Source: a virus
Taxonomy: Duplodnaviria > Heunggongvirae > Uroviricota > Caudoviricetes
Direction: 5' to 3' (one strand)
DNA: 34,296 bases
IMG/VR virus record: IMGVR_UViG_2913128013_000001
Coordinates: 1 to 34,296 of that record
Of this stretch, positions 6,560 through 34,296 are shown piece after piece (position 1 is the first letter of the stretch; each line of letters begins with the position of its first letter). Made by a program: the position numbers and the translations under genes. The notes under the pieces were generated by a model that saw only the letters and a program-made list of their open reading frames with translations, made no database searches and was not told the origin of the DNA.

Positions 6560-6788
6560 AGAACGCCGCCAGTCGTGAAACTTGTTTTCAGGGCTGGCGG
6601 GGTTGAACAACGAGCGAAGCGAGGCGTTAGTTGACAGTCATATTTTTACTGCGTTGGTGCTGGTTTTTGACGGTTGAAAGGAGTTAGCTCGGAGAGCTAA
6701 AGCTAACAACTTACAAATATTCAAAAGTAAGCTTCCTGTTGTTAACATAAGGTCGATTTTTTATGTGGATGATGCAAAAAGGATAGCT

Positions 6789-7520: not shown

Positions 7521-7523
7521 TCG

Positions 7524-7585
7524 TTGATGCCGTATTGACACTTGTTATACTAGTGGTGGAACGAGACTGCAATAGTCTGTTCCAC
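7524..7585 (+). promoter_or_regulatory. Sigma70-like promoter (TTGATG-16nt-TATACT) followed immediately by an imperfect 12-bp-arm inverted repeat (candidate operator or 5' stem-loop)
   Basis: TTGATG at 7524-7529 and TATACT at 7546-7551. Dyad GTGGAAC-g-AGACT (7556-7568) pairs with AGTCT-G-TTCCAC (7574-7585) with one bulge and a 5-nt loop. Confidence 0.35.
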
Positions 7586-7632
7586 TACAGGAGTAATTAC
7601 CTTGACTGTAAGTTGCTTTTATTGAGGGAACT

Positions 7633-8922
7633 ATGAAGTTTAAGACTGAATTGAGTCGAAAATTGCATGACTCGGTAGTGTTTGATTTGAAAAAAGACCT
7701 GGTAAAATTAGAGGGAAACCTAAAAAATACAGATTTGTTGTTGTCGTTTCAGTTCAAAATAATAAGGAATATAATTAGAAGTGAAAGGATGATCAAAGGA
7801 TTAAAGTCTTTCTTAGGGGAACTAAAGGCAACAAAAAGAAAAGGTGGTTTAAAAAAAGAACAATCTAAACTTATTAAGGAAAATATTAAGAGTGTTGAGC
7901 AGGTTATTGATGATGTGAAATTTAAAATATATATCTTCAAAATGTTTGGTGATAGTGTTGCTTTTTTGTATTTGGATAAGTTTGATATTAAGCATTTTTT
8001 TTATAATGTTGTGGATTACAGTCCCAAGGAGTCAGCGGGCTATATGGGAGGGAAGGATGGCTTAAAAGAAGAATGGGGATTGGTGAAGAAGGCCTGCAAG
8101 GCTGGTGTTCCTACGTTACTCAATGATATTACAATGAGTATGAGGCATGGTGATGTTTGTTTACTTGGTGAAGGTGCACCAGTACTGGTGGAGGTGAAAT
8201 CAAGTCAAAATAAAAATGATCGTGTTGAACGTCAAAAAAATAACCTTAATAGACTAGCTGAATTTTTAGCAGAAGATAAAGCTGAAGATTTTAGAGGGAT
8301 GCCATTAGTGTTAAGGAAAGAACTGTGTTTTTCAGAAGTTACATATAAAAAAGAATTTAATGAGCATCTGAATGTATGCAGGAAAAAAGGAATTTCATGG
8401 GTAAGGCTAGAAGATGGATTTTATGTGGTATCTAATCGTGGCTGTGATCTGGAAATAGCATTATCACAGTTGGATCTTAGAGGGAGGAAAATTGCACCTA
8501 TATTTTTGAATGAATATAAAAATAATCAATTGTGGGTTCCTTTAACTCCATTTGTTAATCTTATAAATGATGCGCGTGATTTGTGTGACTTTATAAATGG
8601 GGAGTTAACTATTCTCTGTGTTCTTGATTTGGATTGTTTTAAACAAATAGCTTTGAATGAAGGGTTTGAGCTTGTTTTTGTCGATGGTGAAGACTATTCG
8701 ATGATATTTAAAGAATTTGGTAGCTCATTGATTTGGGGTGTGTCATGGCAAATGATGCTTCGCACTCCTTTAGAAATGGTGTCAATGTCTTGGTTAATTA
8801 AAGATTCAATTGATAGATTTAAGCGTTTACAAAAGCAACATGCTGAGATGCAGCCTGCCACTGATGTTAATACATCCGAAACCTCCTTGTTTGAAAAATA
8901 TAGGCCTCTTTTTACAAAGTAG
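7633..8922 (+). CDS. Hypothetical protein with PD-(D/E)xK-like nuclease motif, 429 aa (cargo island A, gene 2)
   Basis: ATG at 7633 with GAGGGAA RBS. Very AT-rich and Lys-rich. Central motif E147...D165...D174(HGDVCLLG)...E187-V-K189(PVLVEVKSS) fits the restriction-endonuclease-like fold pattern. No Walker A motif seen. Confidence 0.6.
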   Translation: MKFKTELSRKLHDSVVFDLKKDLVKLEGNLKNTDLLLSFQFKIIRNIIRSERMIKGLKSFLGELKATKRKGGLKKEQSKLIKENIKSVEQVIDDVKFKIYIFKMFGDSVAFLYLDKFDIKHFFYNVVDYSPKESAGYMGGKDGLKEEWGLVKKACKAGVPTLLNDITMSMRHGDVCLLGEGAPVLVEVKSSQNKNDRVERQKNNLNRLAEFLAEDKAEDFRGMPLVLRKELCFSEVTYKKEFNEHLNVCRKKGISWVRLEDGFYVVSNRGCDLEIALSQLDLRGRKIAPIFLNEYKNNQLWVPLTPFVNLINDARDLCDFINGELTILCVLDLDCFKQIALNEGFELVFVDGEDYSMIFKEFGSSLIWGVSWQMMLRTPLEMVSMSWLIKDSIDRFKRLQKQHAEMQPATDVNTSETSLFEKYRPLFTK

Positions 8923-9011
8923 TCAGATGCTGTAGGTGTATATGCTATTGCATTAATTTGCATGCAAAACAAGTAGAGGTAAAACTCTTACAGGCTGCTT
9001 GGGGGATAGCT

Positions 9012-9039
9012 TTTGAATGCTAATGCATTTGCATTCAAA
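9012..9039. repeat. Perfect 9-bp inverted repeat with 10-nt spacer (TTTGAATGC-N10-GCATTCAAA) just left of cos
   Basis: Read directly from the sequence; the spacer contains the palindrome AATGCATT. A separate 12-bp perfect palindrome TTTGCATGCAAA lies at 8957-8968. Confidence 0.6.
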
Positions 9040-9058
9040 TTGCCCCACGAAGCGGGCG

Positions 9059-9077
9059 GGCGAGGCGGGGAAAGCAC
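9059..9077. other. cos: Candidate cos cohesive-end sequence (GGCGAGGCGGGGAAAGCAC)
   Basis: The 19-mer matches my recollection of the P2/186 cohesive end. It sits in the non-coding, GC-rich interval next to the portal gene, where cos lies in P2. Confidence 0.5.
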
Positions 9078-9219
9078 TGCGCGCTGGCGGTGGTGCTGAT
9101 TTTATTTTTTCAGCGTCTGAGCGCGTCGTGATGGCGTTTAGAGTGTGCGCCGGGGCGTTGGTGTGTCTGCGGGCTGTTTTGTGCGGTGGTGAGCGTGTGA
9201 GGGCGTGATGGCGGGGTGT

Positions 9220-9246: not shown

Positions 9247-10281
9247 TCAGCCGTTGTCAGTGTCCAGTGAGTAGTTTTTAAAGCGGATGACCTCCTGACC
9301 GAGCCAGCCGTTTATTTCCCGAATCCTGTCCTGTAACGGGATAAGCTCATTGCGGACAAAGACCTTTGCCACTTTCTCAATATCACCCAGCGACCCGACG
9401 TTCTCCGGCTTGCCGCCCATCAACTGAAAGGGGATGCGGTGCGCGTCCAGCAGGTCAGCGGCGCTGGATTTTTTGATATTAAAAAAATCGTCCTTTGTCG
9501 CCACTTCACTGAGCGGGATAATTTTGATGCCGTCTGGCTTTCCCTGTGGTGCATAGAGAAACAGATTATTAAAGTTATTGCGTCCTTTCGACTTGGCCAT
9601 GTTTTCGCGAAGTGAGTCAATGTAATCGCGATCCTGCAATGCGTCGGTGATATACATGATATATCCGGCATGTGCACCGTTTTCGTAATACTTGCGGCGG
9701 AACAGCGTGGCCGACTCATTCAGCCAGGCAGAGTTAAGGGCGCTCAGATATTCCGGCAGGCCGTACAGCTCCTGATTAATATCCGGCTCCAGCAGGTGAA
9801 ACACGGAGCCGGGCGTGAAAGGTGTCGGCTCGTTGAAGGATGGCACCCACCAGTAAACATCCTCCTCCACGCCACGGCGGGTATATTTTGCCGGTGAGGT
9901 TTCCAGTCTGATGACCTTACCGGTGGTGCTGTAACGCTTTTCCAGAAACGCATTACCGAACACCAGAAAATCCAGCACAAAGCGGCTGAAATCCTGCTGG
10001 GAAAGCCACGGATGCGGGATAAACGTTGAAGCCAGAATATTACGTTTGACGTAAATCGGTGAGCTGTGATGCACGGCAGCACGCAGGCTTTTTGCCAGAC
10101 CGGTAAAGCTGACCGGTGGCTCATACCATCTGCCGTTACTGATGCACTCGACATAATCCAGAATGTCACGGCGGTCGAGTACCGGCACCGGCTCGCCAAA
10201 GGTGAATGCCTCCATTTTCGGGGCGCTGGCGGTCATTGTTTTTGCCGCAGGTTGCGGTGTTTTCCCTTTTTTCTTGCTCAT
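9247..10281 (-). CDS. Q: Portal protein, 344 aa
   Basis: 344 aa, the same size as P2 gpQ; adjacent to cos and translationally coupled to the terminase gene. Confidence 0.9.
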   Translation of the reverse strand: MSKKKGKTPQPAAKTMTASAPKMEAFTFGEPVPVLDRRDILDYVECISNGRWYEPPVSFTGLAKSLRAAVHHSSPIYVKRNILASTFIPHPWLSQQDFSRFVLDFLVFGNAFLEKRYSTTGKVIRLETSPAKYTRRGVEEDVYWWVPSFNEPTPFTPGSVFHLLEPDINQELYGLPEYLSALNSAWLNESATLFRRKYYENGAHAGYIMYITDALQDRDYIDSLRENMAKSKGRNNFNNLFLYAPQGKPDGIKIIPLSEVATKDDFFNIKKSSAADLLDAHRIPFQLMGGKPENVGSLGDIEKVAKVFVRNELIPLQDRIREINGWLGQEVIRFKNYSLDTDNG

Positions 10282-12053
10282 CAGTAAAACTCCAGAATGG
10301 TGGATGTCAGCGGGGTGTTGATACCGGCGGTGAGTGGCTCATTTAACAGGGCGTGCATGGTCGCCCAGGCGAGGTCGGCGTGGCTGGCTTCCTCGCTGCG
10401 ACTGGCCTCATAGGTGGCGCTGCGTCCGCTGCTGGTCATGGTCTTACGGATAGCCATAAACGAGCTGGTGATGTCGGTGGCGCTGACGTCATATTCCAGA
10501 CAGCCACGTCGGATAACGTCTTTTGCCTTGAGCACCATTGCGGTTTTCATTTCCGGCGTGTAGCGGATGTCGCGCGCGGCGGGATAGAACGAGCGCACGA
10601 GCTGGAACACGCCGACACCGAGGCCGGTGGCATCAATACCGATGTATTCGACGTTGTATTTTTCGGTGAGTTTGCGGATGGATTCCGCCTGAGTGGCAAA
10701 GTCCATGCCTTTCCACTGGTGACGCTCAAGTATTCTGAATTTGCCACCGGCCACCACCGGCGGTGCCAGTACCACGCATCCGGCACTGTCGCCACGGTGT
10801 GACGGGTCGTAACCAATCCATACCGGGCGGGAGCCGAACGGATTTGCGGCAAACGGCGCATAGTCTTCCCATTCTTCCAGCGTGTCGACCATGCAGCGTT
10901 GCAGCTCCTCGAACGGGAACACCGACGCCTTGTCGTCAACAAATTCACACATGAACAGGTTTTTAAAATCGTCGGCGCTGTTTTCGCGTTTGAGCTGCTC
11001 AATGTCGAACAGCGTGCAGCCGCCTTTCAGCGCGTCCTCAATGGTGACAATCTGCCGCCACTGGCCGTCCGCACAGAGAAGCCCACCGGCAAGGGCGTTA
11101 TGACTGACGTCGATTTCCACGCGTTCAGCGGCGCTGGCGCGTCCCCGGTTAAACAGTTCACCGGACCAGAACGGGTAGGCGTCGTGCGCCAGCGTGGACG
11201 GGGTGGAGAAATAGGTCGAGCGCAGGTGACTCTGTGAGGCCATACCTGATGCCACCTTACGCAGTACCTGAAAATTCGGGATCCAGAAAATCTCGTCGAC
11301 GTACAGGTCGCCGTTATGGCTTTGTGCGGTGTTGGAGTTGGTGCCGAGAAAAATCAGTTTTGCGCCGTTATTGCCCAGGACAATCGGGTCACCGGTCAGG
11401 TCAACGTCAACCAGCCGGGCAAAGGCGATGATGTATTCGCGGAACACATACGCCTGCGTTTTACTGGCCGACAGAAAAATCTGGTTATGACCGGTTTTCA
11501 GGGCGCGCAGCAGCGCCTCGCGGGAAAAATAAAATGTCGCGCCAATCTGGCGGGATTTCAGGATATCGCGGATGCGGTGCTCAAGCCCGGCGCGATACCA
11601 GTGCAACTGATAGTCGAAAGACTGCTCAAAGAAAATCTGCTCCAGCTTTTCGATGGCCTCGTCACTGAAAAAATTCTTTTTCGGTTTGCGCCGTCCGCCT
11701 TTGTTGCGGTTAGCGACGTTCGGATTAAGGTCTGCCTCGTTGCCGGTCTGACTGTAACGGTTTACCCGTGCCAGTCGTTCAATCTGGCGTCCCAGCAGGT
11801 CAATTTCCTTGAAGTCACCGCCGGTTTTCTGCGGTTTGATGATGAGCTGGGTCAGCCGCGCTTCCAGGCTCATTTCGACACGGCTGATGGGGGCAACGTT
11901 GTCCCAGCCGTCGCGCTGTTTCCAGCTCTGCACTGTCGGGCGTTTCATCTGCAACATGGCGGCAATCTGCGGCACGGAAAATCCCTGCCAGTACAGCAGC
12001 GCCGCCTGACGACGCGGGTCGTGTAAAAGAGTGGTGTCTGTGGTGATGGTCAT
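10281..12053 (-). CDS. P: Terminase large (ATPase) subunit, 590 aa
   Basis: Start chosen at MTITTDTTLLHDPRRQ (ATG 12051-12053), giving 590 aa as in P2 gpP. Sits upstream of Q on the same strand. Confidence 0.9.
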   Translation of the reverse strand: MTITTDTTLLHDPRRQAALLYWQGFSVPQIAAMLQMKRPTVQSWKQRDGWDNVAPISRVEMSLEARLTQLIIKPQKTGGDFKEIDLLGRQIERLARVNRYSQTGNEADLNPNVANRNKGGRRKPKKNFFSDEAIEKLEQIFFEQSFDYQLHWYRAGLEHRIRDILKSRQIGATFYFSREALLRALKTGHNQIFLSASKTQAYVFREYIIAFARLVDVDLTGDPIVLGNNGAKLIFLGTNSNTAQSHNGDLYVDEIFWIPNFQVLRKVASGMASQSHLRSTYFSTPSTLAHDAYPFWSGELFNRGRASAAERVEIDVSHNALAGGLLCADGQWRQIVTIEDALKGGCTLFDIEQLKRENSADDFKNLFMCEFVDDKASVFPFEELQRCMVDTLEEWEDYAPFAANPFGSRPVWIGYDPSHRGDSAGCVVLAPPVVAGGKFRILERHQWKGMDFATQAESIRKLTEKYNVEYIGIDATGLGVGVFQLVRSFYPAARDIRYTPEMKTAMVLKAKDVIRRGCLEYDVSATDITSSFMAIRKTMTSSGRSATYEASRSEEASHADLAWATMHALLNEPLTAGINTPLTSTILEFY

Positions 12054-12226
12054 GAATACCTCGCCGTGATGAATACACGGCAAGGCTACTGAGTCGCGCC
12101 CCGCGATTCGCTAAGGTGCTGTTGTGTCAGTGATAAGCCATCCGGGACTGATGGCGGAGGATGCGCATCGTCGGGAAACTGATGCCGACATGTGACTCCT
12201 CTAATCACTATTCAGGACTCCTGACA
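12054..12226. promoter_or_regulatory. Divergent late promoter region (leftward P-Q and rightward O-N-M-L operons)
   Basis: 173-bp interval between divergent P and O starts. Contains the dyad CCGTG-N7-CACGG at 12064-12080. By analogy to P2, Ogr-activated promoters are expected but not resolved. Confidence 0.4.
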
Positions 12227-20919: not shown

Positions 20920-23538
20920 ATGAGCACGAAATTTAAAACCGTTATCACTACTGCCGGAGCCGCAAAGCTGGCAGCCGCCACTGTCCCCGGCGGGAAAAAA
21001 GTAACCCTGTCTGCAATGGCCGTGGGTGACGGTAATGGCAAATTGCCGGTGCCGGATGCCGGTCAGACGAAACTGGTGCATGAGGTCTGGCGTCACGCTC
21101 TGAATAAAGTCAGCGTGGATAACAAGAATAAAAACTATATCGTGGCTGAACTGGTTGTACCGCCCGAAGTGGGCGGCTTCTGGATGCGTGAGCTTGGTCT
21201 GTATGACGATGCCGGAACACTGATTGCGGTCGCTAACATGGCAGAAAGCTATAAGCCTGAACTGGCTGAAGGCTCCGGGCGTGCGCAGACCTGCCGCATG
21301 GTCATTATTGTCAGTAACGTGGCGTCTGTTGAGCTGAGTATTGATGCCAGCACAGTGATGGCGACGCAGGATTACGTCGATGACAAAATCGCAGAACATG
21401 AGCAGTCCCGCCGCCATCCTGACGCCACGCTGACAGAAAAAGGTTTTACTCAGTTAAGCAGTGCAACAAACAGCACCAGTGAGTCATTGGCGGCAACGCC
21501 AAAAGCGGTCAAGGCAGCAAATGACAACGCAAATTCACGTCTGGCGAAAAATCAGAATGGTGCAGATATCCAGGATAAATCAGCTTTTCTGGACAATGTT
21601 GGCGTTACCAGCCTGACGTTTATGAAAAACAATGGCGAAATGCCGGTTGATGCTGATCTGAATACGTTTGGTCCTGTTAAGGCTTATTCAGGTATCTGGT
21701 CTAAAGCAACATCCACCAACGCAACACTGGAGAAAAATTTCCCGGAAGATAATGCTGTCGGTGTGCTTGAGGTTTTTGCTGCCGGAAATTTTGCAGGTAC
21801 GCAACGCTTTACCACAAGAGACGGCAATGTATACATGCGTAAACTCGCCAATAAGTGGAATGGCACTGATGGTCCGTGGGGCGTATGGCGTCACACTCAA
21901 TCAGCGACCCGCCCTTTGAGTACGACTATAGACCTGAATACGCTTGGAGCCGCCGAGCATCTTGGTTTATGGCGTAACAGTAGCTCGGCTATAGCTTCAT
22001 ATGAACGCAATTATCCAGAGGAAGGCGGCTTTGCTCAGGGGACGCTTGAGATCCTCGAAGGCGGGAATTATGGAAGAACGCAACGTTATACCACTCGCCG
22101 TGGAAATATGTACGTCCGCTGCCTTGCGGCAAGCTGGGATGCATCAAATCCGCAGTGGGAACCGTGGTTAAGAGTCGGTCATCAGTCAGAGAGTCGTTAT
22201 TACGACGGGGATTTGAATGATGTGACTTCACCAGGTATTTACAGCGTTACAGGTAAAGCGACCAACGGTCCAATACTGGACGGAAACGGCGTGACAGTCC
22301 TCGGTATTCTGGAAGTGTTGAGGCGCTTTGATGGTGTTAACGTATGGCAGCGTTATACAACTGCCGGAACAGGTACAACCCTTAAAGGTCGCACGTTTGA
22401 GCGCGTTTTTACCGGCAGCTCGTGGAGCGAATGGCGGGAAGTCTACACCTCGTATTCACTTCCCGTGAATCTGGGTATCGGCGGTGTTACAGACAGGTTA
22501 TCCAGTCTGGACTGGCAGACCTACGACTTTATACCGGGCAGCATGATAACTGTCAGGCTTTCAGATATGACCAATATTCCCGATGGGATGGAATGGGGCG
22601 TCATTGATACTAACCTGATAAATATCACTGTTGGCCCCAGTGAAGGCGGAGGTGTCGCCCGTTCAATGCAGGTATGGCGCAGCACTTCAAACAAAACCAA
22701 CTATCGTTTTTTTACAGTCCGTTTATATGGCAATCCTGGGGAGCGTAGCTTCAATATTCGTCGGCTACCAATTATCGACGAAGCCCAGACATGGGAGGCA
22801 AAACAGACATTCAGCGGTGGCCTTTCAGGTGAGCTGTCCGGCAATGCTGCTACAGCAACAAAGCTGAAAACGGCAAGGACAATTAACGGCGTAAAATTTG
22901 ACGGCTCGGCAAATATTGAAGCGTTTCCGCCAGGTGTTCCGCTGCCGTGGCCATCAGATACACCACCTGCGGGCTATGCAATTATGCAGGGGCAGACGTT
23001 TGATAAGGCAGCATATCCGAAACTGGCTATAGCCTATCCTTCTGGTGTTATTCCAGATATGCGCGGCTGGACAATCAAGGGCAAACCCGCCAGTGGGCGT
23101 GCCGTATTGTCACAGGAACAGGACGGGATTAAATCGCATACTCACAGCGCCAGTGCGTCAAATACGGATTTAGGGACGAAAACGACCAGTTCATTTGATT
23201 ACGGCACGAAGACAGTCAGTACGTTTAACTACGGAACAAAAACCACTAATACCACAGGTAACCATACACATACCATTTACAGAGGGAATGCCAATACTAA
23301 TGGTGAAACCGGTAAAACAGGCTTTGACAACCCATCGTTTAATGGCACATCAGGAGCTGCCGGGAATCATGCCCACACGGTAGATATTGGCGCACATAAT
23401 CATACGGTTGGTATTGGTGCACATTCACACACGGTTGCTATTGGCTCACACGGGCACTCTATTACCGTTAATGCTACAGGTAATACAGAAAACACCGTCA
23501 AAAACATCGCATTTAACTATATTGTGAGGCTTGCATAA
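20920..23538 (+). CDS. H: Tail fibre protein H, 872 aa (extended, mosaic C-terminus)
   Basis: N-terminal region typical of P2-like fibre attachment. Central three tandem degenerate repeats of about 60 aa (21739-22450). C-terminal His-box repeats GNHxHT / GAHxHTV (about 23137-23470). Confidence 0.85.
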
Positions 23539-24116
23539 TGGCTTTCAGAATGAGTGCAGAAGCACAAACTATCCTCGTTTTCAATTTACTTGATGGAACC
23601 AATGAGTTTATTGGCGAAAGTGATGCATATATTCCGCCGCATACAGGTCTGCCTGCAAACAGTACAGATATTGCACCACCTGATATTCCTGCTGGTTATG
23701 CAGCCGTTTTCAATGCAGATGAAATGAAATGGGAACTGATGGAAGACCATCGCGGAAAGACCGTCTACGAAACGAAAACAGGAGCAGCCATTTATATTTC
23801 TGAACTTGGCGTATTACCTCCAGATGTGACAGCTATTTCCCCGGAGGGGGATTATCAGAAATGGAACGGAAATGCGTGGGTGAATGATGAGAATGCAGAG
23901 CGTGATGCACTTGTCAGAGCGGCGGAGTCTCAGAAGAAAGAGCAGATTGTATATGCCGGTGAAATTATTGGCATGCTGCAGGATGCTGTCGATTTAGATA
24001 TGGCTACCGAGGAAGAAAAGTTAAGCCTGACACACTGGAAAAAATACCGTGTGCTACTGAATCGCGTTCAGCCGGAAAATGCCCCGGATATAGAATGGCC
24101 AGAAATGCCGCAATAA
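23538..24116 (+). CDS. G: Tail fibre assembly chaperone G, 192 aa
   Basis: TAATG-coupled to H; size and position match a P2 gpG-type Tfa chaperone. Confidence 0.75.
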
Positions 24117-24435
24117 ATCGTATTAGCTCTGGTGTGAGATTACTCATCTATGGCACAGAGTAAAACCTAATCTGACTGTCCGCTCTGTGCCAAGGGCGGA
24201 CGTTAGAAATATAAAAGCATCTTTATAACCTGGTTGTTGGGGAGAGTTTTGTTGCGTTCGCCACCACTCCTGAGAATGCTGCTATTTACTATGGTAATAT
24301 TGACAGCTAAAATTTATAATGAAGAGCGACTCAATAGCCAGTTCAAGCCAGATTCTGATGGGGCATTAATGATATTCCTTCTCGCTATTTCGGTATGTTG
24401 CCCACTCTAGCATCTTTAGAATAAGGAACGAAACC

Positions 24436-24939
24436 GTGACAGAATTTCTTGAAAAAATGTTTGATCGTGTTTATTCGGAAAAAGACTTCAGCATTAATAT
24501 CGCCATATTTGTCTCCGGAATCGCAGGAGTTACCTGTTATCTTATTCTCCACGATTATGTACTGACGCTGTTTTCTTTTATTATTGTTTTTCCGGTTGTA
24601 AAGATTATTGCGGGAGGATTATACCTGCGAATTATTACCCTCAAGGGAGAGGCAGTTGCAGAAAAACGACTGGCAATGCTTTATAATTCTTTGACTGGAA
24701 GAGAAAAAGAAGTAGTAATGCACTTTGTGACGCATGGTGGTTCTGTTATGACATGGGGACAAATGAATAGGCTTGATGATCCTGAACCGGGTGTAGAATC
24801 TCTGGCCCGTCGTGGATTACTGAATACGTCCGTAACGATGGATGGTATGCGAGAAACGTTTGAACTAGATCTGACCCTCTTTAATTATGCATACAACTAT
24901 CACCCCCATCAGGAGAAGATGCTTACTTCAGAAGAATAA
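24436..24939 (+). CDS. Small membrane protein, 167 aa (cargo island B)
   Basis: GTG start at 24436 with AAGGA RBS (ATG alternative at 24460). Two predicted transmembrane helices in the first 60 aa, then a soluble C-terminal part. AT-rich. Confidence 0.45.
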   Translation: MTEFLEKMFDRVYSEKDFSINIAIFVSGIAGVTCYLILHDYVLTLFSFIIVFPVVKIIAGGLYLRIITLKGEAVAEKRLAMLYNSLTGREKEVVMHFVTHGGSVMTWGQMNRLDDPEPGVESLARRGLLNTSVTMDGMRETFELDLTLFNYAYNYHPHQEKMLTSEE

Positions 24940-25243
24940 GAAATTTGTAATCTTTATGATGAAAATCTTAAACAGTATGGCGCCTCCCATCCTGTTTATT
25001 CAAAGGATGTAAGGTTTACACATTCCTGAAAACTTCAGACTCAACCATGATGTATGAGCTGTAGTATGAAGTCTCTTTCCATCCAGTTAAGTAAATGTCT
25101 GCTCCTCGCTTAAAGCGGACTTTTAGCTTAGTTAGCTAGTCAGCTCAGTGCTAAAAGCTGTATAGTCTGTATTGATGAACTAAGGAGCAGATCAGGAGTA
25201 TTTTGGAGAGCGTTTTAGTTACTGTGAAATATAATAGATTGAA

Positions 25244-25272
25244 ACCATGAGGCTCTATTAGAACCTCATGGT
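25244..25272 (-). terminator. Candidate terminator hairpin downstream of the 675-aa gene
   Basis: 9-bp stem ACCATGAGG / CCTCATGGT with an 11-nt loop, 13 nt past the stop codon. The downstream tract on the minus strand is only moderately U-rich. Confidence 0.35.
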
Positions 25273-25284
25273 AAACTTAAATAC

Positions 25285-27312
25285 TTACTGAAGTAAAACA
25301 TTCATTCTTTCTCTCCGATAATCCACAAGTTGTTCAATATCGCTCTCAAGACTTTCTATCCCAAAAGCAACTGAATCACTAATTTGTAGAGTGTGTTTTT
25401 TGACAACAGTGCTTTCAAAAAACTCATTTAATTGAATTGGTTTTTCAAATTGTTTAATTAAGTCAGAGGCTTGAAGCGTATTATTTTCCCATAATTTATG
25501 CATGGGGTGATTTGTGGACGTTAACGTACCATATTCATTTCTTACTTTAATTCCACTTATATGACTATTGTGCAGTATTTTGCTAAGTGCCGAATAGTCA
25601 GTTACATACACCCCATAGTATTTCCCAGGAAGTGAGAATGGAAGGTTGTTGACAATTACTGGTATAATTTCAAAGTTATTAATATCAAGGCCAAATTTAT
25701 CGCTGAATACATCCTGGTGTTTTTTTAGACCATCAGCAAGTCTGATAACTTGATTAGCTGCGTCAATTAAAAACATTTTCTTCTTGAATGCTTTAGTTAC
25801 AGAACCACCGGATAAATTTGTATTTTTACATTCCAGAACAAATACTTTATCATCTAATACAATTATTGCATCATACTCATATTCTTCATTCTCTCTTTTG
25901 AACTTAAAATGCTGATGATTTATTTTTAAATCAGAGAGCATTTCGTGGATCTCTTTTTCAAAACCAAATCCTTTTTGGGAAAGATCTACTTTTAGTGATG
26001 AGAACTTTGATAATATAATGTTACTTATTCCAGGGCTGAAATAGCCAATACTACAGAATAGATAATCTCCAGATTTCATTTTTAAAAGAGGAGAATCATA
26101 AAGGTCACGGGATTCATTGTTAAAGCTAGCCAAATCAATAAATAGCTTTGATTTATTACCAGGTATACCAACTAATTGTAAATATGTGCTCAATTCCGAT
26201 GAAGTAAATACTTCTCTTTTTTCCGATATTTTGGATAGTCTTTCTAGCGCGGAGTAACACCTAACCCATTCACGCAGTGTTAAACCAAAAATTAACATGC
26301 TCTCATCAGTTAAACATAGAGTCTCGAGTAGTGCTACATATGCCGGAAACTCTGATGTCGTTATTGAATAACCGTTATTAATATCTGCAAGCCTAGTTAA
26401 ATTTTCATCTACTGTTTTATGGACATTATGTTTATACAACGCCTCCATGAAGTTCTGTGATAACTTTGAATACAGCCTTTCATTTGACATGTAATCCAAT
26501 CTTATGAATTGTTCTTTAGTTAGATTAAATTCATAGAATGTCTCAAGACCAGCGTTCTCTAATCCATTAGGTAAGTTTGTAGAGGTATATTCATTTAATT
26601 CATAATCAAATAGCAGGCATGTTTCTACAGAACGCTCTAAAGAAGACCACAGTATCGAATTGTAAAATATTACCCCAGCATCATTAATATCATCTTCCTT
26701 AACATCTACCATGTCAGGAATTACAATGAAACCCCCACTATTTAACTTATAATTAAAGCCAATCATCTTCAAACTAAGAGATAGATAATCGACTGTTTTG
26801 GATATTACAACATCAGGAGAGTATGATTCACCTTGTTTGTTTTTTAAGTATGCGGTAGAAATATCAAACAATTTTGGTTCCCGGTTAATGCTCTCTAGAT
26901 ATTTCTTTGTTTCGTTTTTTAAAAAATCTATCTCACCTTGCGCCCGTCTTATTATAGCCCAACACTGTATTTCCGGCGTTTTTTTGCTGATGGGTAAGCT
27001 TGATAAGTTAGATTTAATAACATCAAATATTTTTTCCGCACAAATACATAGTTTTTTAAGGTTATCTATTTTTTGTATTAAATCAGGGACACTTGTAGCT
27101 CCTTTTAAGTCGGTGAGGAATGAATTTCTTTTTTCCCGTAAATTCACATTGTGGGGTTGTATATTGATGTTTTTTTTAAACATCGCAAAAAGGAAACGAA
27201 GTATTTTATCATTATAATTCTGTTTTAACTGTATCACTATGTTCTTTGACTTGAATTTGCAATAGTCGATTTCTAACGTTTTATAGATATTTTCTGCATG
27301 TGATTGTGACAT
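25285..27312 (-). CDS. Large hypothetical protein with C-terminal PD-(D/E)xK nuclease-like motif, 675 aa (cargo island B)
   Basis: ATG at 27310-27312 with AAGG RBS. Very AT-rich, opposite strand to the phage late genes. Motif GFGFEKEIHE (E452/E454)...YDAIIVLDDKVFVLECK (D481, D487/D488, E494, K496). No Walker A motif. Confidence 0.6.
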   Translation of the reverse strand: MSQSHAENIYKTLEIDYCKFKSKNIVIQLKQNYNDKILRFLFAMFKKNINIQPHNVNLREKRNSFLTDLKGATSVPDLIQKIDNLKKLCICAEKIFDVIKSNLSSLPISKKTPEIQCWAIIRRAQGEIDFLKNETKKYLESINREPKLFDISTAYLKNKQGESYSPDVVISKTVDYLSLSLKMIGFNYKLNSGGFIVIPDMVDVKEDDINDAGVIFYNSILWSSLERSVETCLLFDYELNEYTSTNLPNGLENAGLETFYEFNLTKEQFIRLDYMSNERLYSKLSQNFMEALYKHNVHKTVDENLTRLADINNGYSITTSEFPAYVALLETLCLTDESMLIFGLTLREWVRCYSALERLSKISEKREVFTSSELSTYLQLVGIPGNKSKLFIDLASFNNESRDLYDSPLLKMKSGDYLFCSIGYFSPGISNIILSKFSSLKVDLSQKGFGFEKEIHEMLSDLKINHQHFKFKRENEEYEYDAIIVLDDKVFVLECKNTNLSGGSVTKAFKKKMFLIDAANQVIRLADGLKKHQDVFSDKFGLDINNFEIIPVIVNNLPFSLPGKYYGVYVTDYSALSKILHNSHISGIKVRNEYGTLTSTNHPMHKLWENNTLQASDLIKQFEKPIQLNEFFESTVVKKHTLQISDSVAFGIESLESDIEQLVDYRRERMNVLLQ

Positions 27313-27561
27313 AAAGAAACCTTACAGTGGTGGTAATATTTGACATGATGTCCATTGAGGTAGCATGCAGTTTATCCAATATCCTGAATACTCGCAAATT
27401 TAAAACAATATTAATGGAGAGTATAAATATCCTGCTTAACCGGACCATTCACTTTGAGAGATCTTCCGGCAAACCAATGTCCGCAGTTCGCTCAAAGTAG
27501 ACTGTCAGATTTGACAGAGCTTTGGTTACTTAATTTGTCAGTTGGAAACTGAGAGAGTACA

Positions 27562-27589
27562 AATCAAGGCCGGCGGGCTGATTGCCCGC
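27562..27589 (+). terminator. Rho-independent terminator upstream of the FI late operon
   Basis: GGCGGGC-tgatt-GCCCGCC hairpin followed by TTTTCTTTAT on the plus strand. Confidence 0.55.
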
Positions 27590-27694
27590 CTTTTCTTTAT
27601 CTGTTGTTTCATCCACTGACCAGTCAGGTCAAATAGCGTCTCATGCACTGCCCAACAGAAAATAGTTGCACCCATTAACCACGGAGTTAAACGG

Positions 27695-28885
27695 ATGAGT
27701 GACTATCATCACGGCGTGCAGGTGCTGGAGATTAACGACGGCACCCGCGTCATTTCCACCGTATCCACTGCCATTGTCGGCATGGTCTGCACGGCCAGCG
27801 ATGCGGATGCGGAAACCTTCCCCCTCAATAAACCGGTGCTGATTACCAATGTGCAGAGCGCAATTGCAAAGGCTGGTAAAAAAGGCACGCTGGCGGCGTC
27901 GTTGCAGGCCATCGCTGACCAGTCAAAACCAGTCACCGTTGTCGTGCGTGTTGAAGACGGCACCGGCGACGACGAGGAAACGAAACTCGCGCAGACCGTT
28001 TCCAATATCATCGGCACCACTGACGAAAACGGTCAGTACACCGGACTGAAAGCCCTGATGGGGGCTGAGTCGGTTACCGGCGTTAAACCGCGCATTCTTG
28101 GTGTGCCGGGGCTGGACACCAAAGAGGTTGCCGTCGCACTGGCATCGGTATGCCAGGAACTGAATGCATTCGGGTATATCAGCGCATGGGGCTGTAAAAC
28201 CATTTCCGAGGTGAAAGCCTACCGCCAGAATTTCAGCCAGCGTGAGCTGATGGTCATCTGGCCGGATTTCCTCGCATGGGATACGGTCACCAGCACCACC
28301 GCCACCGCGTATGCCACCGCCCGTGCGCTGGGTCTGCGCGCTAAAATCGACCAGGAGCAGGGCTGGCATAAAACGCTGTCCAACGTCGGGGTAAACGGTG
28401 TTACCGGCATCAGCGCATCTGTATTCTGGGATTTGCAGAAGTCCGGCACTGATGCTGACCTGCTGAACGAGGCAGGCGTCACAACGCTGGTTCGCCGCGA
28501 CGGTTTCCGTTTCTGGGGTAACCGTACCTGCTCCGATGACCCACTGTTCCTCTTTGAAAGCTACACACGCACCGCGCAGGTACTGGCTGACACGATGGCT
28601 GAGGCGCACATGTGGGCTATTGATAAGCCCATCACCGCAACGCTGATTCGCGACATCGTTGACGGCATCAATGCCAAATTCCGTGAACTGAAAAGCAACG
28701 GTTATATCGTGGATGGCACATGCTGGTTCAGTGAAGAAGCCAATGATGCGGAAACCCTCAAGGCCGGAAAACTGTATATCGACTACGACTACACCCCGGT
28801 GCCTCCTCTCGAAAACCTGACCCTGCGCCAGCGTATTACTTCAAGATACCTGGCAAGTCTGGTCACCTCGGTTAACAGCAATTAA
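27695..28885 (+). CDS. FI: Contractile tail sheath protein, 396 aa
   Basis: 396 aa, the same size as P2 gpFI; GGAG RBS; first gene of the FI-FII-E-T-U-D operon. Confidence 0.9.
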   Translation: MSDYHHGVQVLEINDGTRVISTVSTAIVGMVCTASDADAETFPLNKPVLITNVQSAIAKAGKKGTLAASLQAIADQSKPVTVVVRVEDGTGDDEETKLAQTVSNIIGTTDENGQYTGLKALMGAESVTGVKPRILGVPGLDTKEVAVALASVCQELNAFGYISAWGCKTISEVKAYRQNFSQRELMVIWPDFLAWDTVTSTTATAYATARALGLRAKIDQEQGWHKTLSNVGVNGVTGISASVFWDLQKSGTDADLLNEAGVTTLVRRDGFRFWGNRTCSDDPLFLFESYTRTAQVLADTMAEAHMWAIDKPITATLIRDIVDGINAKFRELKSNGYIVDGTCWFSEEANDAETLKAGKLYIDYDYTPVPPLENLTLRQRITSRYLASLVTSVNSN

Positions 28886-28897: not shown

Positions 28898-29416
28898 ATG
28901 GCAATGCCGCGCAAACTCAAGTTAATGAACGTCTTTCTGAACGGCTACAGCTATCAGGGCGTTGCAAAGTCCGTCACGCTGCCAAAACTGACCCGTAAGC
29001 TCGAAAACTATCGCGGTGCGGGGATGAACGGCAGCGCACCGGTAGACCTCGGCCTTGATGACGATGCGCTGTCAATGGAGTGGTCGCTCGGTGGCTTCCC
29101 GGATTCGGTTATCTGGGAGCTTTACGCCGCAACCGGTGTGGATGCCGTGCCGATTCGTTTTGCAGGCTCTTACCAGCGCGACGATACCGGCGAAACGGTG
29201 GCCGTCGAAGTGGTCATGCGTGGACGTCAGAAAGAAATCGACACCGGCGAGGGTAAACAGGGAGAAGACACCGAGTCGAAAATCTCCGTGGTCTGCACCT
29301 ATTTCCGGCTGACGATGGACGGTAAGGAGCTGGTCGAAATCGACACCATCAACATGATTGAGAAGGTGAACGGCGTCGACCGGCTGGAGCAACACCGCCG
29401 CAATATCGGCCTGTGA
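28898..29416 (+). CDS. FII: Tail tube protein, 172 aa
   Basis: 172 aa, same size and position as P2 gpFII. Confidence 0.9.
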   Translation: MAMPRKLKLMNVFLNGYSYQGVAKSVTLPKLTRKLENYRGAGMNGSAPVDLGLDDDALSMEWSLGGFPDSVIWELYAATGVDAVPIRFAGSYQRDDTGETVAVEVVMRGRQKEIDTGEGKQGEDTESKISVVCTYFRLTMDGKELVEIDTINMIEKVNGVDRLEQHRRNIGL

Positions 29417-29472
29417 TTTTCATCCGGTCAGCCTGGCTGACCGGTTAACCCTGATTCAGAAGTGAGAAAACC

Positions 29473-29748
29473 ATGAACAAAGAAAATGTCATTACCCTGG
29501 ACAATCCGGTTAAACGTGGTGAGCAGGTTATCGAACAGGTCACGCTGATGAAACCTAATGCCGGGACGCTGCGCGGTGTCAGTCTGGCAGCGGTCGCGAA
29601 CTCCGAAGTCGATGCACTGATTAAGGTGCTGCCGCGCATGACGGCACCGATGCTGACCGAGCAGGAAGTCGCCGCGCTGGAACTGCCTGACCTTGTGGCG
29701 CTGGCCGGTAAGGTGGTCGGTTTTTTGTCGCCGAACTCGGTGCAGTGA
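29473..29748 (+). CDS. E: Tail assembly chaperone E, 91 aa
   Basis: 91 aa directly upstream of the tape measure gene; ends ...VVGFLSPNSVQ with a TTTTTTG slippery site near its 3' end. Confidence 0.8.
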   Translation: MNKENVITLDNPVKRGEQVIEQVTLMKPNAGTLRGVSLAAVANSEVDALIKVLPRMTAPMLTEQEVAALELPDLVALAGKVVGFLSPNSVQ

Positions 29749-29900
29749 CGTTTCCGAAAAATCTGTCGGTCGATGACCTGATGGCGGATGTGGCAGTGGT
29801 ATTTCACTGGCCGCCATCAGAACTGTATCCCATGAGCCTGACCGAACTCATCACATGGCGCGAAAAGGCGCTCAGGCGAAGCGGAAACACGAATGAGTAA
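29473..29900 (+). CDS. E': E+E' fusion produced by programmed -1 frameshift at T TTT TTG (29721-29727)
   Basis: After a -1 slip at 29721-29727 the reading frame stays open to TAA at 29898-29900, overlapping the T start. Mirrors the known P2 E/E' arrangement. Confidence 0.6.
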
Positions 29901-32340
29901 CAATGTAAAATTACAGGTATTGCTCAGGGCTGTTGACCAGGCATCCCGCCCGTTTAAATCCATCCGCACAGCGAGTAAGTCGCTGTCGGGGGATATCCGG
30001 GAAACACAAAAATCACTGCGCGAGCTGAACGGTCACGCATCCCGTATTGAGGGATTCCGCAAGACCAGTGCACAGCTCGCCGTGACTGGTCATGCACTTG
30101 AAAAGGCACGGCAGGAGGCCGAAGCCCTTGCCACACAGTTTAAAAACACCGAACGCCCGACCCGTGCTCAGGCGAAAGTGCTGGAATCCGCAAAGCGTGC
30201 GGCGGAGGACTTACAGGCGAAATATAACCGCCTGACGGATTCCGTTAAACGCCAGCAGCGGGAGCTGGCCGCTGTGGGAATTAATACCCGCAATCTTGCA
30301 CATGATGAGCAGGGACTGAAAAACCGTATCAGTGAAACCACCGCACAGCTTAACCGTCAGCGTGATGCGCTGGCGCGTGTCAGTGCGCAACAGGCAAAAC
30401 TTAACGCAGTAAAACAGCGTTATCAGGCCGGAAAGGAACTGGCCGGAAATATGGCCTCAGTGGGCGCTGCCGGTGCGGGGATTGCGGCGGCGGGAACGAT
30501 GGCCGGTGTTAAGCTGCTGATGCCCGGTTATGAGTTTGCGCAGAAAAACTCAGAATTACAGGCCGTGCTCGGAGTGGCAAAAGACTCTGCCGAAATGGCC
30601 GCGCTCCGCAAGCAGGCGCGCCAGCTCGGCGATAATACCGCCGCCTCGGCGGATGATGCGGCCGGTGCGCAGATTATCATTGCGAAAGCGGGTGGAGATG
30701 CTGCGGCTATTCAGGCGGCAACGCCGGTCACGCTGAATATGGCACTGGCGAATCAGCGGTCGATGGAAGAAAACGCGCAACTGTTGCTGGGGACTAAGGC
30801 ATCCTTTCAACTGTCAAATGATGATGTCAGCCATGTGGGCGACGTGTTGTCTGCAACGATGAATAAGTCGGCGGCTGATTTTCAGGGACTCAGTGATGCA
30901 CTGACTTACCTCGGGCCGGTTGCGAGGACGGCAGGCGTAAGTCTTGAGCAGGCAGCGGCCATGACAGGTGTGCTGCATGACAATAACATCAGGGGGTCAA
31001 TGGCGGGTACGGGTAGTAGTGCCGTTGTCACCCGATTACAGGCACCGACTGGAAAAGCATGGGATGCACTCAAAGAGCTTGGCGTTAAAACCTCGGACAA
31101 AAAGGGAAATATGCGTCCGTTGTTCACCATTCTGAAAGAGATTCAGGCCAGCTTTGATAAACACAAGCTGGGAACGTCTCAGAAGGGGGAATACCTTAAA
31201 ACCATTTTTGGTGAGGAAGCCCTGAAATCAGCGAACGTTTTACTGGCAGCGGCAGCAAGCGGAAAACTGGATAAGCTGACCGCCACGCTGAAAGCCTCGG
31301 ACGGTAAAACGGAAGAGCTGGTTAAAATCATGCAGGACAACCTCGGCGGTGACTTTAAGGAGTTTCAGTCCGCTTATGAGGCTGTGGGGACTGACCTGTT
31401 TGACCAGCAGGAAGGCGCACTGCGTAAGCTCACGCAGACGGTCACAAAGTATGTGTTAAAACTCGACGGCTGGATCCAGAAAAACAAATCACTGGCGTCA
31501 ACCATCGGCGTCATTGTCGGTGGTGCACTGGCACTGATTGGTGTCATCGGTGCCATTGGCCTCGTAGCCTGGCCGGTTATCACCGGCATCAATGCCATCA
31601 TCGCGGCAGCAGGCGCAATGGGTGCAATCTTCACGACGGTTGGCAGTGCTGTTATGACGGCCATCGGGGCGATTAGCTGGCCGGTTGTGGCCGTGGTGGC
31701 CGCCATTGTCGCCGGGGCGTTACTTATCCGTAAATACTGGGAGCCTGTCAGCGCATTCTTTGGCGGTGTGGTAGAAGGGCTGAAAGCGGCATTTGCGCCT
31801 GTGGGGGAACTGTTCACGCCACTTAAGCCGGTGTTTGACTGGCTGGGCGAAAAGTTACAGGCCGCGTGGCAGTGGTTTAAAAACCTGATTGCCCCGGTCA
31901 AAGCCACCCAGGACACCCTGAACCGTTGCCGTGACACGGGCGTCCTGTTCGGGCAGGCACTGGCTGACGCGCTGATGCTGCCGCTTAATGCGTTCAACAA
32001 ACTGCGCAGCGGTATTGACTGGGTACTGGAAAAACTCGGTGTTATCAACAAAGAGTCAGACACACTTGACCAGACCGCCGCCAGAACTCAAGCCGCCACG
32101 TATGGCAGCGGTGGTTATATTCCGGCGACCAGCTCTTATGCAGGCTATCAGGCTTATCAGCCGGTCACGGCACCGGCTGGCCGCTCTTATGTAGACCAGA
32201 GTAAAAACGAATATCACATCAGCCTGACGGGTGGTACTGCGCCGGGGACACAGCTTGACCGCCAGTTACAGGATGCGCTCGAAAAATACGAGCGGGATAA
32301 ACGTGCGCGCGCCCGTGCCAGCATGATGCATGACGGTTAA
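29893..32340 (+). CDS. T: Tail tape measure protein, 815 aa
   Basis: 815 aa, largely alpha-helical with a central hydrophobic Gly/Ala-rich segment; position matches P2 gpT. Confidence 0.85.
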   Translation: MSNNVKLQVLLRAVDQASRPFKSIRTASKSLSGDIRETQKSLRELNGHASRIEGFRKTSAQLAVTGHALEKARQEAEALATQFKNTERPTRAQAKVLESAKRAAEDLQAKYNRLTDSVKRQQRELAAVGINTRNLAHDEQGLKNRISETTAQLNRQRDALARVSAQQAKLNAVKQRYQAGKELAGNMASVGAAGAGIAAAGTMAGVKLLMPGYEFAQKNSELQAVLGVAKDSAEMAALRKQARQLGDNTAASADDAAGAQIIIAKAGGDAAAIQAATPVTLNMALANQRSMEENAQLLLGTKASFQLSNDDVSHVGDVLSATMNKSAADFQGLSDALTYLGPVARTAGVSLEQAAAMTGVLHDNNIRGSMAGTGSSAVVTRLQAPTGKAWDALKELGVKTSDKKGNMRPLFTILKEIQASFDKHKLGTSQKGEYLKTIFGEEALKSANVLLAAAASGKLDKLTATLKASDGKTEELVKIMQDNLGGDFKEFQSAYEAVGTDLFDQQEGALRKLTQTVTKYVLKLDGWIQKNKSLASTIGVIVGGALALIGVIGAIGLVAWPVITGINAIIAAAGAMGAIFTTVGSAVMTAIGAISWPVVAVVAAIVAGALLIRKYWEPVSAFFGGVVEGLKAAFAPVGELFTPLKPVFDWLGEKLQAAWQWFKNLIAPVKATQDTLNRCRDTGVLFGQALADALMLPLNAFNKLRSGIDWVLEKLGVINKESDTLDQTAARTQAATYGSGGYIPATSSYAGYQAYQPVTAPAGRSYVDQSKNEYHISLTGGTAPGTQLDRQLQDALEKYERDKRARARASMMHDG

Positions 32341-32354: not shown

Positions 32355-32834
32355 ATGATGCTCGCGTTAGGTATGTTTGTTTTTATGCGCCAGACGCTGC
32401 CACACCAGACCATGCAGCGTGAATCAGATTATCGCTGGCCGTCAAATTCCCGTATCGGCAAACGGGATGCCTTTCAATTTCTCGGTGTGGGTGAGGAAAA
32501 CATCACGCTTGCCGGTGTGCTTTATCCCGAACTGACCGGCGGAAAGCTGACGATGACCACGCTCAGGCTGATGGCGGAGGAAGGCCGGGCGTGGCCGTTG
32601 CTGGATGGCACTGGCATGATTTACGGCATGTATGTCATCAGCAGGGTGAGTGAAACAGGGAGTATTTTCTTTGCAGACGGCACACCCCGAAAAATTGATT
32701 TTACGCTGTCGCTCACCCGCGTTGATGAATCACTGGCCGCGCTGTATGGCGATATCGGTAAACAGGCGGAATCGCTCATCGGTAAGGCTGGCAGTATGGC
32801 GACCAGATTCACGGGTATGACGGGGGCGGGATAA
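32355..32834 (+). CDS. U: Tail protein U, 159 aa
   Basis: 159 aa between T and D, as in P2. Confidence 0.85.
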   Translation: MMLALGMFVFMRQTLPHQTMQRESDYRWPSNSRIGKRDAFQFLGVGEENITLAGVLYPELTGGKLTMTTLRLMAEEGRAWPLLDGTGMIYGMYVISRVSETGSIFFADGTPRKIDFTLSLTRVDESLAALYGDIGKQAESLIGKAGSMATRFTGMTGAG

Positions 32835-34000
32835 TGCTGGATGCGCTGACATTTGATGCAGGCAGTACGCTGACGCCGGATTACATGCTGATGCTCGACA
32901 GCAGGGATATTACCGGCAATATCAGCGACCGTCTGATGAGCATGACCCTGACGGATAACCGGGGCTTTGAGGCTGACCAGCTTGATATTGAACTGAACGA
33001 TGCCGACGGGCAGGTCGGGCTGCCGATTCGTGGCGCTGTCCTGACGGTGTATATCGGCTGGAAAGGTTTTGCCCTGGTATGCAAAGGGAAATTTACCGTT
33101 GATGAGGTTGAACACAGGGGCGCGCCGGATGTGGTCACCATCCGCGCCCGGAGTGCAGATTTTCGCGGGACGCTCAATTCCCGCCGTGAAGGCTCATGGC
33201 ATGACACCACACTCGGTGCGATTGTTGAGGCGATAGCCTCCCGTAACAAGCTGGAAGCCAGTGTCGCTCCGCCACTGGCCGGAATTAAAATCCCGCACAT
33301 CGACCAGTCGCAGGAGTCTGATGCGAAATTCCTGACCCGTCTTGCTGAACGCAACGGCGGCGAGGTGTCGGTAAAAATGGGAAAACTGTTGTTTCTCAAA
33401 GCGGGGCAGGGGGTGACGGCCAGCGGTAAAAAAATCTCGCAGGTCACCATCACCCGCAGCGACGGCGACCGTCATCATTTTGCGATTGCTGACCGTGGAG
33501 CCTATACCGGTGTAACGGCAAAGTGGTTACACACCAAAGACCCGAAACCGCAAAAGCAGATGGTAAAACTGAAACGCAAAAAGAAAGAGAAACACCTGCG
33601 CGCACTGGAGCACCCGAAAGCGAAACCGGTCACGCAGAAGAAAGCGCCAAAAGTACCGGAGGCGCGCGAAGGTGAATACATGGCCGGTGAAGCTGACAAC
33701 GTTTTTGCCCTGACCACGGTATATGCCACGAAAGCGCAGGCCATGCGTGCCGCTCAGGCGAAGTGGGATAAACTGCAACGGGGCGTTGCGGAGTTCTCCA
33801 TCAGCCTGGCTACCGGTCGTGCTGATATTTACACGGAAACACCGGTCAGAGTGTCAGGCTTTAAGCGCGTCATAGACGAGCAGGACTGGACAATCACTAA
33901 GGTGACACATTTTCTGAATAATAGCGGCTTCACGACGTCCTTAGAGCTTGAGGTCAGGCTTTCTGACGTGGAGTACGAAACAGAAGATGATGAGCAATGA
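32834..34000 (+). CDS. D: Tail protein D (late control gene D-type), 388 aa
   Basis: 388 aa, overlapping the U stop; last gene of the tail operon, as in P2. Confidence 0.85.
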   Translation: MLDALTFDAGSTLTPDYMLMLDSRDITGNISDRLMSMTLTDNRGFEADQLDIELNDADGQVGLPIRGAVLTVYIGWKGFALVCKGKFTVDEVEHRGAPDVVTIRARSADFRGTLNSRREGSWHDTTLGAIVEAIASRNKLEASVAPPLAGIKIPHIDQSQESDAKFLTRLAERNGGEVSVKMGKLLFLKAGQGVTASGKKISQVTITRSDGDRHHFAIADRGAYTGVTAKWLHTKDPKPQKQMVKLKRKKKEKHLRALEHPKAKPVTQKKAPKVPEAREGEYMAGEADNVFALTTVYATKAQAMRAAQAKWDKLQRGVAEFSISLATGRADIYTETPVRVSGFKRVIDEQDWTITKVTHFLNNSGFTTSLELEVRLSDVEYETEDDEQ

Positions 34001-34077
34001 GTTGTTTTATCTATTTGTTTTATAAGGATAAAATAACTAAAATGGCACCATCAACAAAACCGGAAGAGGTGCTCGCG

Positions 34078-34296
34078 ATGTTTCATTGTCCTTTATGCCA
34101 GCATGCCGCACATGCGCGTACAAGCCGCTATATCACTGACACGACAAAAGAGCGTTATCACCAGTGTCAGAACGTGAATTGCAGCGCCACGTTCATCACT
34201 TATGAGTCGGTACAGCGATACATCGTGAAGCCGGGAGAAGTCCACGCCGTAAGGCCGCACCCATTGCCGTCAGGGCAGCAAATTATGTGGATGTAA
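34078..34296 (+). CDS. ogr: Late gene transcriptional activator Ogr (zinc finger), 72 aa
   Basis: Start at MFHCPLCQHAAHARTSRY (ATG 34078). 72 aa with a C-x2-C...C-x4-C zinc-binding arrangement; matches my recollection of P2 Ogr. Confidence 0.85.
   Translation: MFHCPLCQHAAHARTSRYITDTTKERYHQCQNVNCSATFITYESVQRYIVKPGEVHAVRPHPLPSGQQIMWM

Follow-up and report, generated by a model that had tools for sequence, protein, structure and literature searches.

Gene content of the prophage

The window, i.e., the whole stretch of DNA analyzed here (34,296 nt), is a complete P2-like (Peduovirus) prophage from int to ogr, and it spans the prophage without attachment sites or host flanks. Its left edge is the end of the integrase-side open reading frame (ORF; positions 1 to 996, minus strand; assigned by its place) and ends exactly at the stop codon of the ogr ORF (33997 to 34296; Pfam Ogr_Delta, E = 2.4 × 10−21). 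A large ORF (3574 to 5922) occupies the place where P2 has replication gene A, and portal- and terminase-sized ORFs on the minus strand (9247 to 12083, the portal-sized one being 9247 to 10281) were assigned by position only. Pfam matches identified the tail fiber gene (20920 to 23538), the tail-fiber assembly gene (23538 to 24116), GpU (32355 to 32834) and GPD (D; 32834 to 34000). In the tail operon, the sheath gene FI (27695 to 28885; strong Pfam match) is followed by the tail tube gene FII (28898 to 29416, plus strand; Pfam Phage_tube, E = 2.3 × 10−60; P2 homologue gpFII), which lies directly upstream of E, and the tape measure gene T (29893 to 32340, plus strand) encodes 815 aa (Pfam PhageMin_Tail, E = 2.1 × 10−44; P2 homologue gpT). 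E/E′ thus sits between the tube and tape measure genes, and the order of the tail operon (FI sheath, FII tube, E, [E′], T, U, D) is that of the P2 annotation. The tail genes around E are all intact and full length, with strong family matches.

Architecture of the E/E′ overlap

Gene E (29473 to 29748, plus strand; ORF and translation) encodes the zero-frame tail assembly chaperone of 91 aa and ends in TGA (29746 to 29748). A preliminary description of this DNA had claimed a slippery TTTTTTG near the 3′ end of E, and the heptamer is present at 29721 to 29727 on the plus strand. Base 29721 is the third position of the E codon GGT (Gly); therefore, as read from the sequence, the heptamer is phased T_TTT_TTG (Gly-Phe-Leu) in the E frame, which fits the canonical X_XXY_YYZ pattern of tandem −1 slippage. 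From the slip site to the stop, the E-frame codons are GGT TTT TTG TCG CCG AAC TCG GTG CAG TGA. The −1 frame contains a TAA at 29709 to 29711 and is then open from 29712 to the TAA at 29898 to 29900, leaving a stretch of 37 nt (29712 to 29748, plus strand) with both the E and the −1 (E′) frames open. Because the upstream TAA closes the −1 frame, joining of E to E′ by a −1 shift is possible only within this overlap, and the heptamer lies inside it.

After the slip, the E′ segment (29727 to 29900, plus strand), in which G29727 is read twice, runs for 57 codons plus the TAA, in exact agreement with the count given in the preliminary description, and the fused E+E′ product has 142 aa (about 15.5 kDa). 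The description's further claim of an overlap with the tape-measure start also holds, as the E′ TAA reaches past the ATG of T at 29893 (overlap ATGAGTAA): the tape-measure ORF begins at this ATG, and the E′ stop is therefore 5 nt inside it. An overlap of the ATGAGTAA type (29893 to 29900 in the window), or an ATGA-type equivalent, was found in most aligned relatives. Since the E′ stop overlaps the T start, frameshifted ribosomes would stop right at it, and there may be some translational coupling. A 51-aa GTG-started ORF (29745 to 29900, plus strand), called separately by automatic pipelines, covers the 3′ part of E+E′.

Protein families and identity with phage P2

E matched the Pfam family Phage_TAC_7 (PF10109; E = 2.6 × 10−12, 47 bits against a cutoff of 25), described as “Phage tail assembly chaperone proteins, E, or 41 or 14,” and PHROG 103 “tail protein” (E = 2.6 × 10−45). 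Residues 104 to 139 of the conceptual fusion matched Phage_P2_GpE (PF06528; E = 5.8 × 10−22, 77.4 bits against a cutoff of 23), and the E′ part matched PHROG 1756 (E = 3.1 × 10−28). An NCBIfam search with E and E+E′ gave no match, and a sequence search of the PDB returned no solved relative of E/E+E′. The exact 91-aa E protein was found on at least 1000 contigs; the exact fused E+E′ product of the window was absent from the protein collection searched.

Megablast of positions 29400 to 29950 retrieved 74 phage records at ≥95% identity, including P2 (AF063097) at 98.0%. An alignment with the P2 E/E′ region, which the preliminary description had proposed as a check, accordingly gave 98% identity, with zero differences between the window and P2 over 29600 to 29764, heptamer included. 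At the homologous place, the P2 record holds gpE, a two-piece coding sequence (CDS) for gpE+E′ and a misc_feature labeled “site of -1 translational frameshift”; its note on gpE+E′ reads [quoted passage not shown] The P2 E/E+E′ frameshift was reportedly demonstrated by Christie et al. in 2002 (J Bacteriol 184:6522). By exact-sequence look-up, the P2 reference protein (AAD03292.1/NP_046780.1/UniProt O64312, “Tail assembly protein E′”) is the tandem-slip construct with the junction GFL|VAEL. A junction GFLF, which would result from re-reading base 29728, where the P2 misc_feature coordinate maps, was considered and rejected, there being no such exact protein in the collection. The junction is therefore taken to re-read G29727, because the GFL|VAEL version is AAD03292.1 and the GFLF protein is not in the collection. 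The E+E′ product of the window differs from the P2 reference at two residues. Taken together, the 98% identity, the frameshift site of the P2 record at the homologous position and the GFL|VAEL junction bear out the earlier suggestion of a conserved, P2-like tail-chaperone frameshift.

Conservation and coding selection

To establish how widely the arrangement is shared, the fused protein was searched by tblastn against phage records, 418 of which were matched; in 401 of these, the match fell into two pieces in two frames covering ≥80% of the query. Hosts of the matched phages include Escherichia, Yersinia, Salmonella, Klebsiella, Burkholderia, Ralstonia, Pseudomonas and Mannheimia, among others. 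A comparative set of 15 sequences was then assembled from the window, P2 and 13 diverse fetched loci (14 Peduoviridae phages). In all 15, the −1 frame is open for 32 to 54 codons beyond the E stop and encodes the E′ motif DDLMADIAVIFHWPP...L.E...WR..A..RSG, and an in-frame X_XXY_YYZ heptamer lies within the overlap. The heptamer is TTTTTTG in 12 of the 15, always in the same phase (Phe-Leu); the others are G_GGA_AAG (Mannheimia phage 587AP1), A_AAT_TTT (E. coli 520873) and C_CCT_TTC (Klebsiella phage ST16-OXA48phi5.4). Among relatives, the −1-frame protein can be aligned from the heptamer onward (RFF-V/A-A/E-E-.-G).

Coding selection was evaluated in the stretch downstream of the E stop, where just one frame can code, by pairwise comparison with five relatives. 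Substitutions in this stretch are concentrated at third positions, and only in the E′ frame are they rich in synonymous changes. In the comparison with Kp4886-2, the ratio of synonymous to nonsynonymous changes was 7:6 in the E′ frame (other frames, 1:14 and 1:13), and in that with Burkholderia phage CEP1 it was 11:29 (other frames, 1:40 and 2:37). As the synonymous excess is confined to the E′ frame, these comparisons argue that E′ is a translated, selected sequence reachable only from E.

Chance expectation and alternative explanations

The string TTTTTTG occurs 19 times in the window (both strands), compared with 11.3 ± 3.4 times in shuffles. In a crude gene set (the 39 long, nonoverlapping ORFs of the window; 10,502 codons), 50 in-frame X_XXY_YYZ heptamers were counted, or approximately 1 per 210 codons, and 1 of the 50 (AAATTTT at 2786) has a −1 frame running past the stop of its own gene. 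This heptamer (A_AAT_TTT, 2786 to 2792) precedes the stop of a DUF2732 ORF (2571 to 2828) by 11 codons, and the −1 frame after it stays open for 111 codons, this being the next gene, a DUF5405 ORF (2825 to 3127) that overlaps the stop. The two look like an ordinary overlapping gene pair and not like recoding, and they provide a base-rate example of a heptamer and a −1 ORF coming together by chance. By rough estimate, a heptamer in a 12-codon overlap together with a −1 frame of at least 57 codons would be expected at approximately 1 in 1000, a pattern that is suggestive; the frameshift reading becomes decisive because homology and conservation add to it.

The frequency of TTTTTTG, and the occurrence of a late in-frame heptamer with a long −1 ORF (the next gene) in the ORF at 2571 to 2828 as well, would be compatible with a chance coincidence or a decayed prophage, in which heptamer and open −1 frame are present and nothing is functional. 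We give this almost no credence: the shift site is identical to that of P2, the adjoining tail genes are intact and strongly matched to their families over their full length, the E′ frame is under purifying selection and all 15 sequences examined share the arrangement. It is extremely unlikely, too, that E′ is an independent small gene of 51 aa translated from the GTG at 29745 with no frameshift. An ORF beginning at this GTG does exist (29745 to 29900); it carries the label “GpE family phage tail protein” in RefSeq E. coli genomes, and the exact 51-aa ORF is found on at least 999 contigs. However, the GTG has no usable Shine-Dalgarno (SD) sequence (the only GGTG, at 29739 to 29742, is 2 nt from it), and one account of P2 (PMC3931495, citing Christie 2002) describes a T6G slippery sequence, a 37-nt overlap and an E′ without a ribosome binding site; judged by sequence, E′ thus lacks initiation signals for separate translation. 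Furthermore, the first in-frame start codon is placed differently in each relative, the −1-frame peptide is conserved from the heptamer onward, all 15 sequences keep an in-frame heptamer within the overlap, and the curated P2 and UniProt entries give a fused protein.

Transcriptional slippage, in which RNA polymerase would stutter on T6 and add one U to yield U7 mRNAs and the junction GFF|VAEL, finds some support in the homopolymeric nature of the site, in relatives from Stenotrophomonas and Xanthomonas with T7G or T7C (PMC3931495) and in QTN08932.1, a 142-aa fused protein with the junction GFF|VAEL from one E. coli genome record. The latter is P2 E+E′ as a single ORF save for its junction, which implies T7 and not T6, and it represents either a natural allele making only E+E′ or a homopolymer sequencing error. 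The six-base run is nonetheless shorter than those that slip appreciably; appreciable slippage by E. coli RNA polymerase takes runs of about 8 to 9 or more. Moreover, the codon phase T_TTT_TTG is constant and the G is kept in 12 of 12 TTTTTTG sites, features needed by tandem tRNA slippage and not by the polymerase, and the shift is classed as translational both in published work and in the P2 record. The heptamers of three relatives (GGGAAAG, AAATTTT and CCCTTTC) are not homopolymers and could be slipped on by ribosomes only, and ribosomal slippage is therefore favored over transcriptional slippage, which we regard as very unlikely to account for the site, though it could make a minor contribution. 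Nothing contradicting a frameshift was found in the present analysis, and the site is almost certainly the P2 E/E+E′ programmed −1 ribosomal frameshift in a P2-like prophage. Sequence anatomy, homology, conservation and the −1-frame coding signature were all observed in this prophage, and every defining feature of the P2 E/E+E′ system on which sequence can bear is present.

Stimulatory elements and frameshifting efficiency

RNA around and downstream of the heptamer folded no better than shuffles (29728 to 29800, z = −0.10; 29700 to 29860, z = −0.72), and RNAalifold returned 0 consensus pairs over 11 homologous sites. Similarly, P2 has been reported to be without downstream structures at the shift site (PMC3091744). 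A 5-bp hairpin (29729 to 29742) was rejected as a stimulator: it starts just 2 nt past the heptamer and is not conserved. As a stem-loop or pseudoknot 5 to 9 nt downstream was looked for and not found, the frameshift does not fall into the structure-stimulated class (dnaX/IS911/viral type). On the upstream side, the sole SD-like string is AAGGTGG at 29710 to 29716, 4 nt before the heptamer, and this spacing is wrong for −1 stimulation; stimulation of the −1 shift in dnaX needs an SD-like element approximately 10 to 14 nt upstream. The string is partly conserved because the Lys/Glu-Val codons of E are conserved.

The efficiency of the shift in P2 and its relatives is reported to be 2- to 3-fold above that of the lambda G-T shift, for which a product ratio of 30:1 is given (about 3 to 4% shifted; PMC5009743). 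No stimulatory element having been identified, this reported efficiency is not explained by any element found here. We consider it unlikely that the shift is other than purely tandem ribosomal, with part of it arising from P-site-only slippage or RNA polymerase stuttering (GFF|VAEL), or that the conserved SD-like (A/G)AGGT string 4 nt before the heptamer tunes its efficiency. If true, such impure slippage or tuning would explain how P2 exceeds lambda in efficiency without a downstream structure.

Proposed mechanism and function

Tandem −1 ribosomal slippage on U_UUU_UUG is the best-supported mechanism. Most ribosomes would read E (29473 to 29748) to its TGA, yielding the 91-aa chaperone gpE. 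A minority would slip by −1 with the P-site tRNA-Phe on UUU (29722 to 29724) and the A-site tRNA-Leu on UUG (29725 to 29727); these tRNAs would re-pair with UUU/UUU, making GUC (29727 to 29729) the next codon. Translation of 57 further codons to the UAA at 29898 to 29900 would then give gpE+E′, 142 aa long and joined at ...GFL|VAEL..., and no downstream RNA structure would be required for the shift. For P2, a −1 frameshift at TTTTTTG has been described by which a single start yields both E (91 aa) and E+E′ (142 aa) (PMC3091744). UUG re-pairs imperfectly with UUU at the wobble position, so the slip could be tandem (junction FL|V) or confined to the P site (junction FF|V). The alternatives would differ in their products: a tandem slip would yield the tryptic junction peptide VVGFLVAELGAVTFPK, in which Leu is retained, and a P-site-only slip or a U7 transcript would yield the junction peptide VVGFFVAELGAVTFPK.

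The function of the two products can be proposed from lambda, where the domain common to gpG and gpGT binds the tape measure, the extension of gpGT binds the tube protein and starts polymerization, and neither protein is found in the virion (PMC5009743). By analogy, the E domain shared by both proteins would coat the tape measure protein T, and the E′ extension would recruit the tube protein FII, such that tube and sheath polymerize to the right length; the frameshift would set the ratio of E to E+E′. The binding partners of the E and E′ domains are thus putative and drawn from the lambda proteins. That the fusion protein is made by frameshifting and is essential in P2, with both E and E+E′ needed for tail assembly, comes from the P2 record and from papers citing Christie et al. 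2002; for this prophage, the same is predicted from sequence.

Annotation of E+E′ in E. coli genomes

Of 5426 complete E. coli genomes, 1583 contain the E/E′ region. In line with the remark in the preliminary description that the frameshift is invisible to simple ORF calling, RefSeq/PGAP lists E′ in E. coli under its own entry, “GpE family phage tail protein,” and among the RefSeq E. coli records listed E′ is a separate gene and not part of a joined CDS. The 51-aa GTG-started gene call is an annotation artifact, and the appropriate annotation for E+E′ is a joined CDS (29473..29727, 29727..29900). The E/E+E′ frameshift itself is no new finding (Christie et al. 2002; Xu et al. 2004); it is real but ordinary, a textbook case of the tail-chaperone recoding that long-tailed phages conserve. 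An intact shift site also marks the prophage tail module as likely functional.

Cargo islands

Two low-GC (34 to 36%) cargo islands lie in the prophage, one at the P2 fun(Z) position and the other (6765 to 8922) at what we take to be the tin/old position of P2. The former (34% GC), between the fiber assembly gene (23538 to 24116) and FI (27695), contains a 675-aa ORF (25285 to 27312, minus strand) with a weak NERD nuclease-related domain (Pfam, E = 8.7 × 10−5, amino acids 448 to 532) and no PADLOC, PHROG or NCBIfam match. Of 5426 complete E. coli genomes, just 3 hold ≥80% of the stretch from 24200 to 27650, with the gene labeled “NERD domain-containing protein,” and the ORF is a candidate anti-phage gene in the P2 variable locus (PMC9122126). 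The island at 6765 to 8922 (34 to 36% GC), between the ORF at 3574 to 5922 and the portal-sized ORF (9247 to 10281, minus strand), holds two plus-strand ORFs of 251 and 429 aa that matched only PHROGs of unknown function (3403 and 14906), with no Pfam or PADLOC match. Positions 6300 to 9200 were present (≥80%) in just 16 of 5426 E. coli genomes, annotated as hypothetical proteins, and the two ORFs are a possible two-gene defense cargo. Just past the tail-fiber assembly gene, a 167-aa GTG-started ORF (24436 to 24939, plus strand; ∼41% GC) had no Pfam, PADLOC or PHROG match; several E. coli genomes carry the surrounding region (24200 to 25020) at 93.5% identity, annotated “hypothetical protein.” For the cargo regions, identity to the best E. 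coli matches was no more than 98 to 98.6%. Something new is more likely to be held by the two cargo islands than by the frameshift site.

Comparison with known systems

Tandem −1 slippage on an X_XXY_YYZ heptamer is also used by E. coli dnaX (gamma/tau), where A_AAA_AAG is accompanied by an upstream SD-like stimulator at approximately 10 nt and a downstream stem-loop (PMC5009743), whereas no downstream structure was found here. The same logic as in E/E+E′ underlies lambda gpG/gpGT (Levin, Hendrix and Casjens 1993; Xu, Hendrix and Duda 2004, 2013, 2014), though lambda slips on G_GGA_AAG and the P2 type on T_TTT_TTG, the chaperones of lambda and P2 share no amino acid sequence similarity (PMC3931495), and lambda is a siphovirus whereas P2 is a contractile-tailed myovirus. 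The locus belongs to the general lambda G/GT-type class (Xu, Hendrix and Duda 2004), a class defined by position and architecture and not by sequence similarity (PMC3091744; PMC5009743).

Within the Peduoviridae, the same two-frame architecture is seen in phage 186 orf51/orf52 (gene H), phiCTX orf24/24.5, Burkholderia phages KS5, KS14, KL3 and Carl1, and others (PMC3091744). These E/E′ pairs also lie between the tube and tape measure genes, with TTTTTTG in frame in most and DDLMADIAVIFHWPP conserved; their protein identity is 37 to 77%, the N termini of E vary in length and a few use other heptamers. Closest of all is P2 gpE/gpE+E′ itself (AAD03291.1/AAD03292.1; O64312, TAPFS_BPP2). The prophage differs from P2 in carrying different cargo at its two variable loci, and E+E′ differs in having N29 (S29 in P2) and V (I in P2) within ...DVAV(V/I)FHW.... 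Common to both are the gene order FII-E-E′-T, the TTTTTTG heptamer with its frame and distance to the E stop, the 37-nt overlap, the overlap of E′ stop and T start, the product lengths of 91 and 142 aa and the junction GFL|VAEL.
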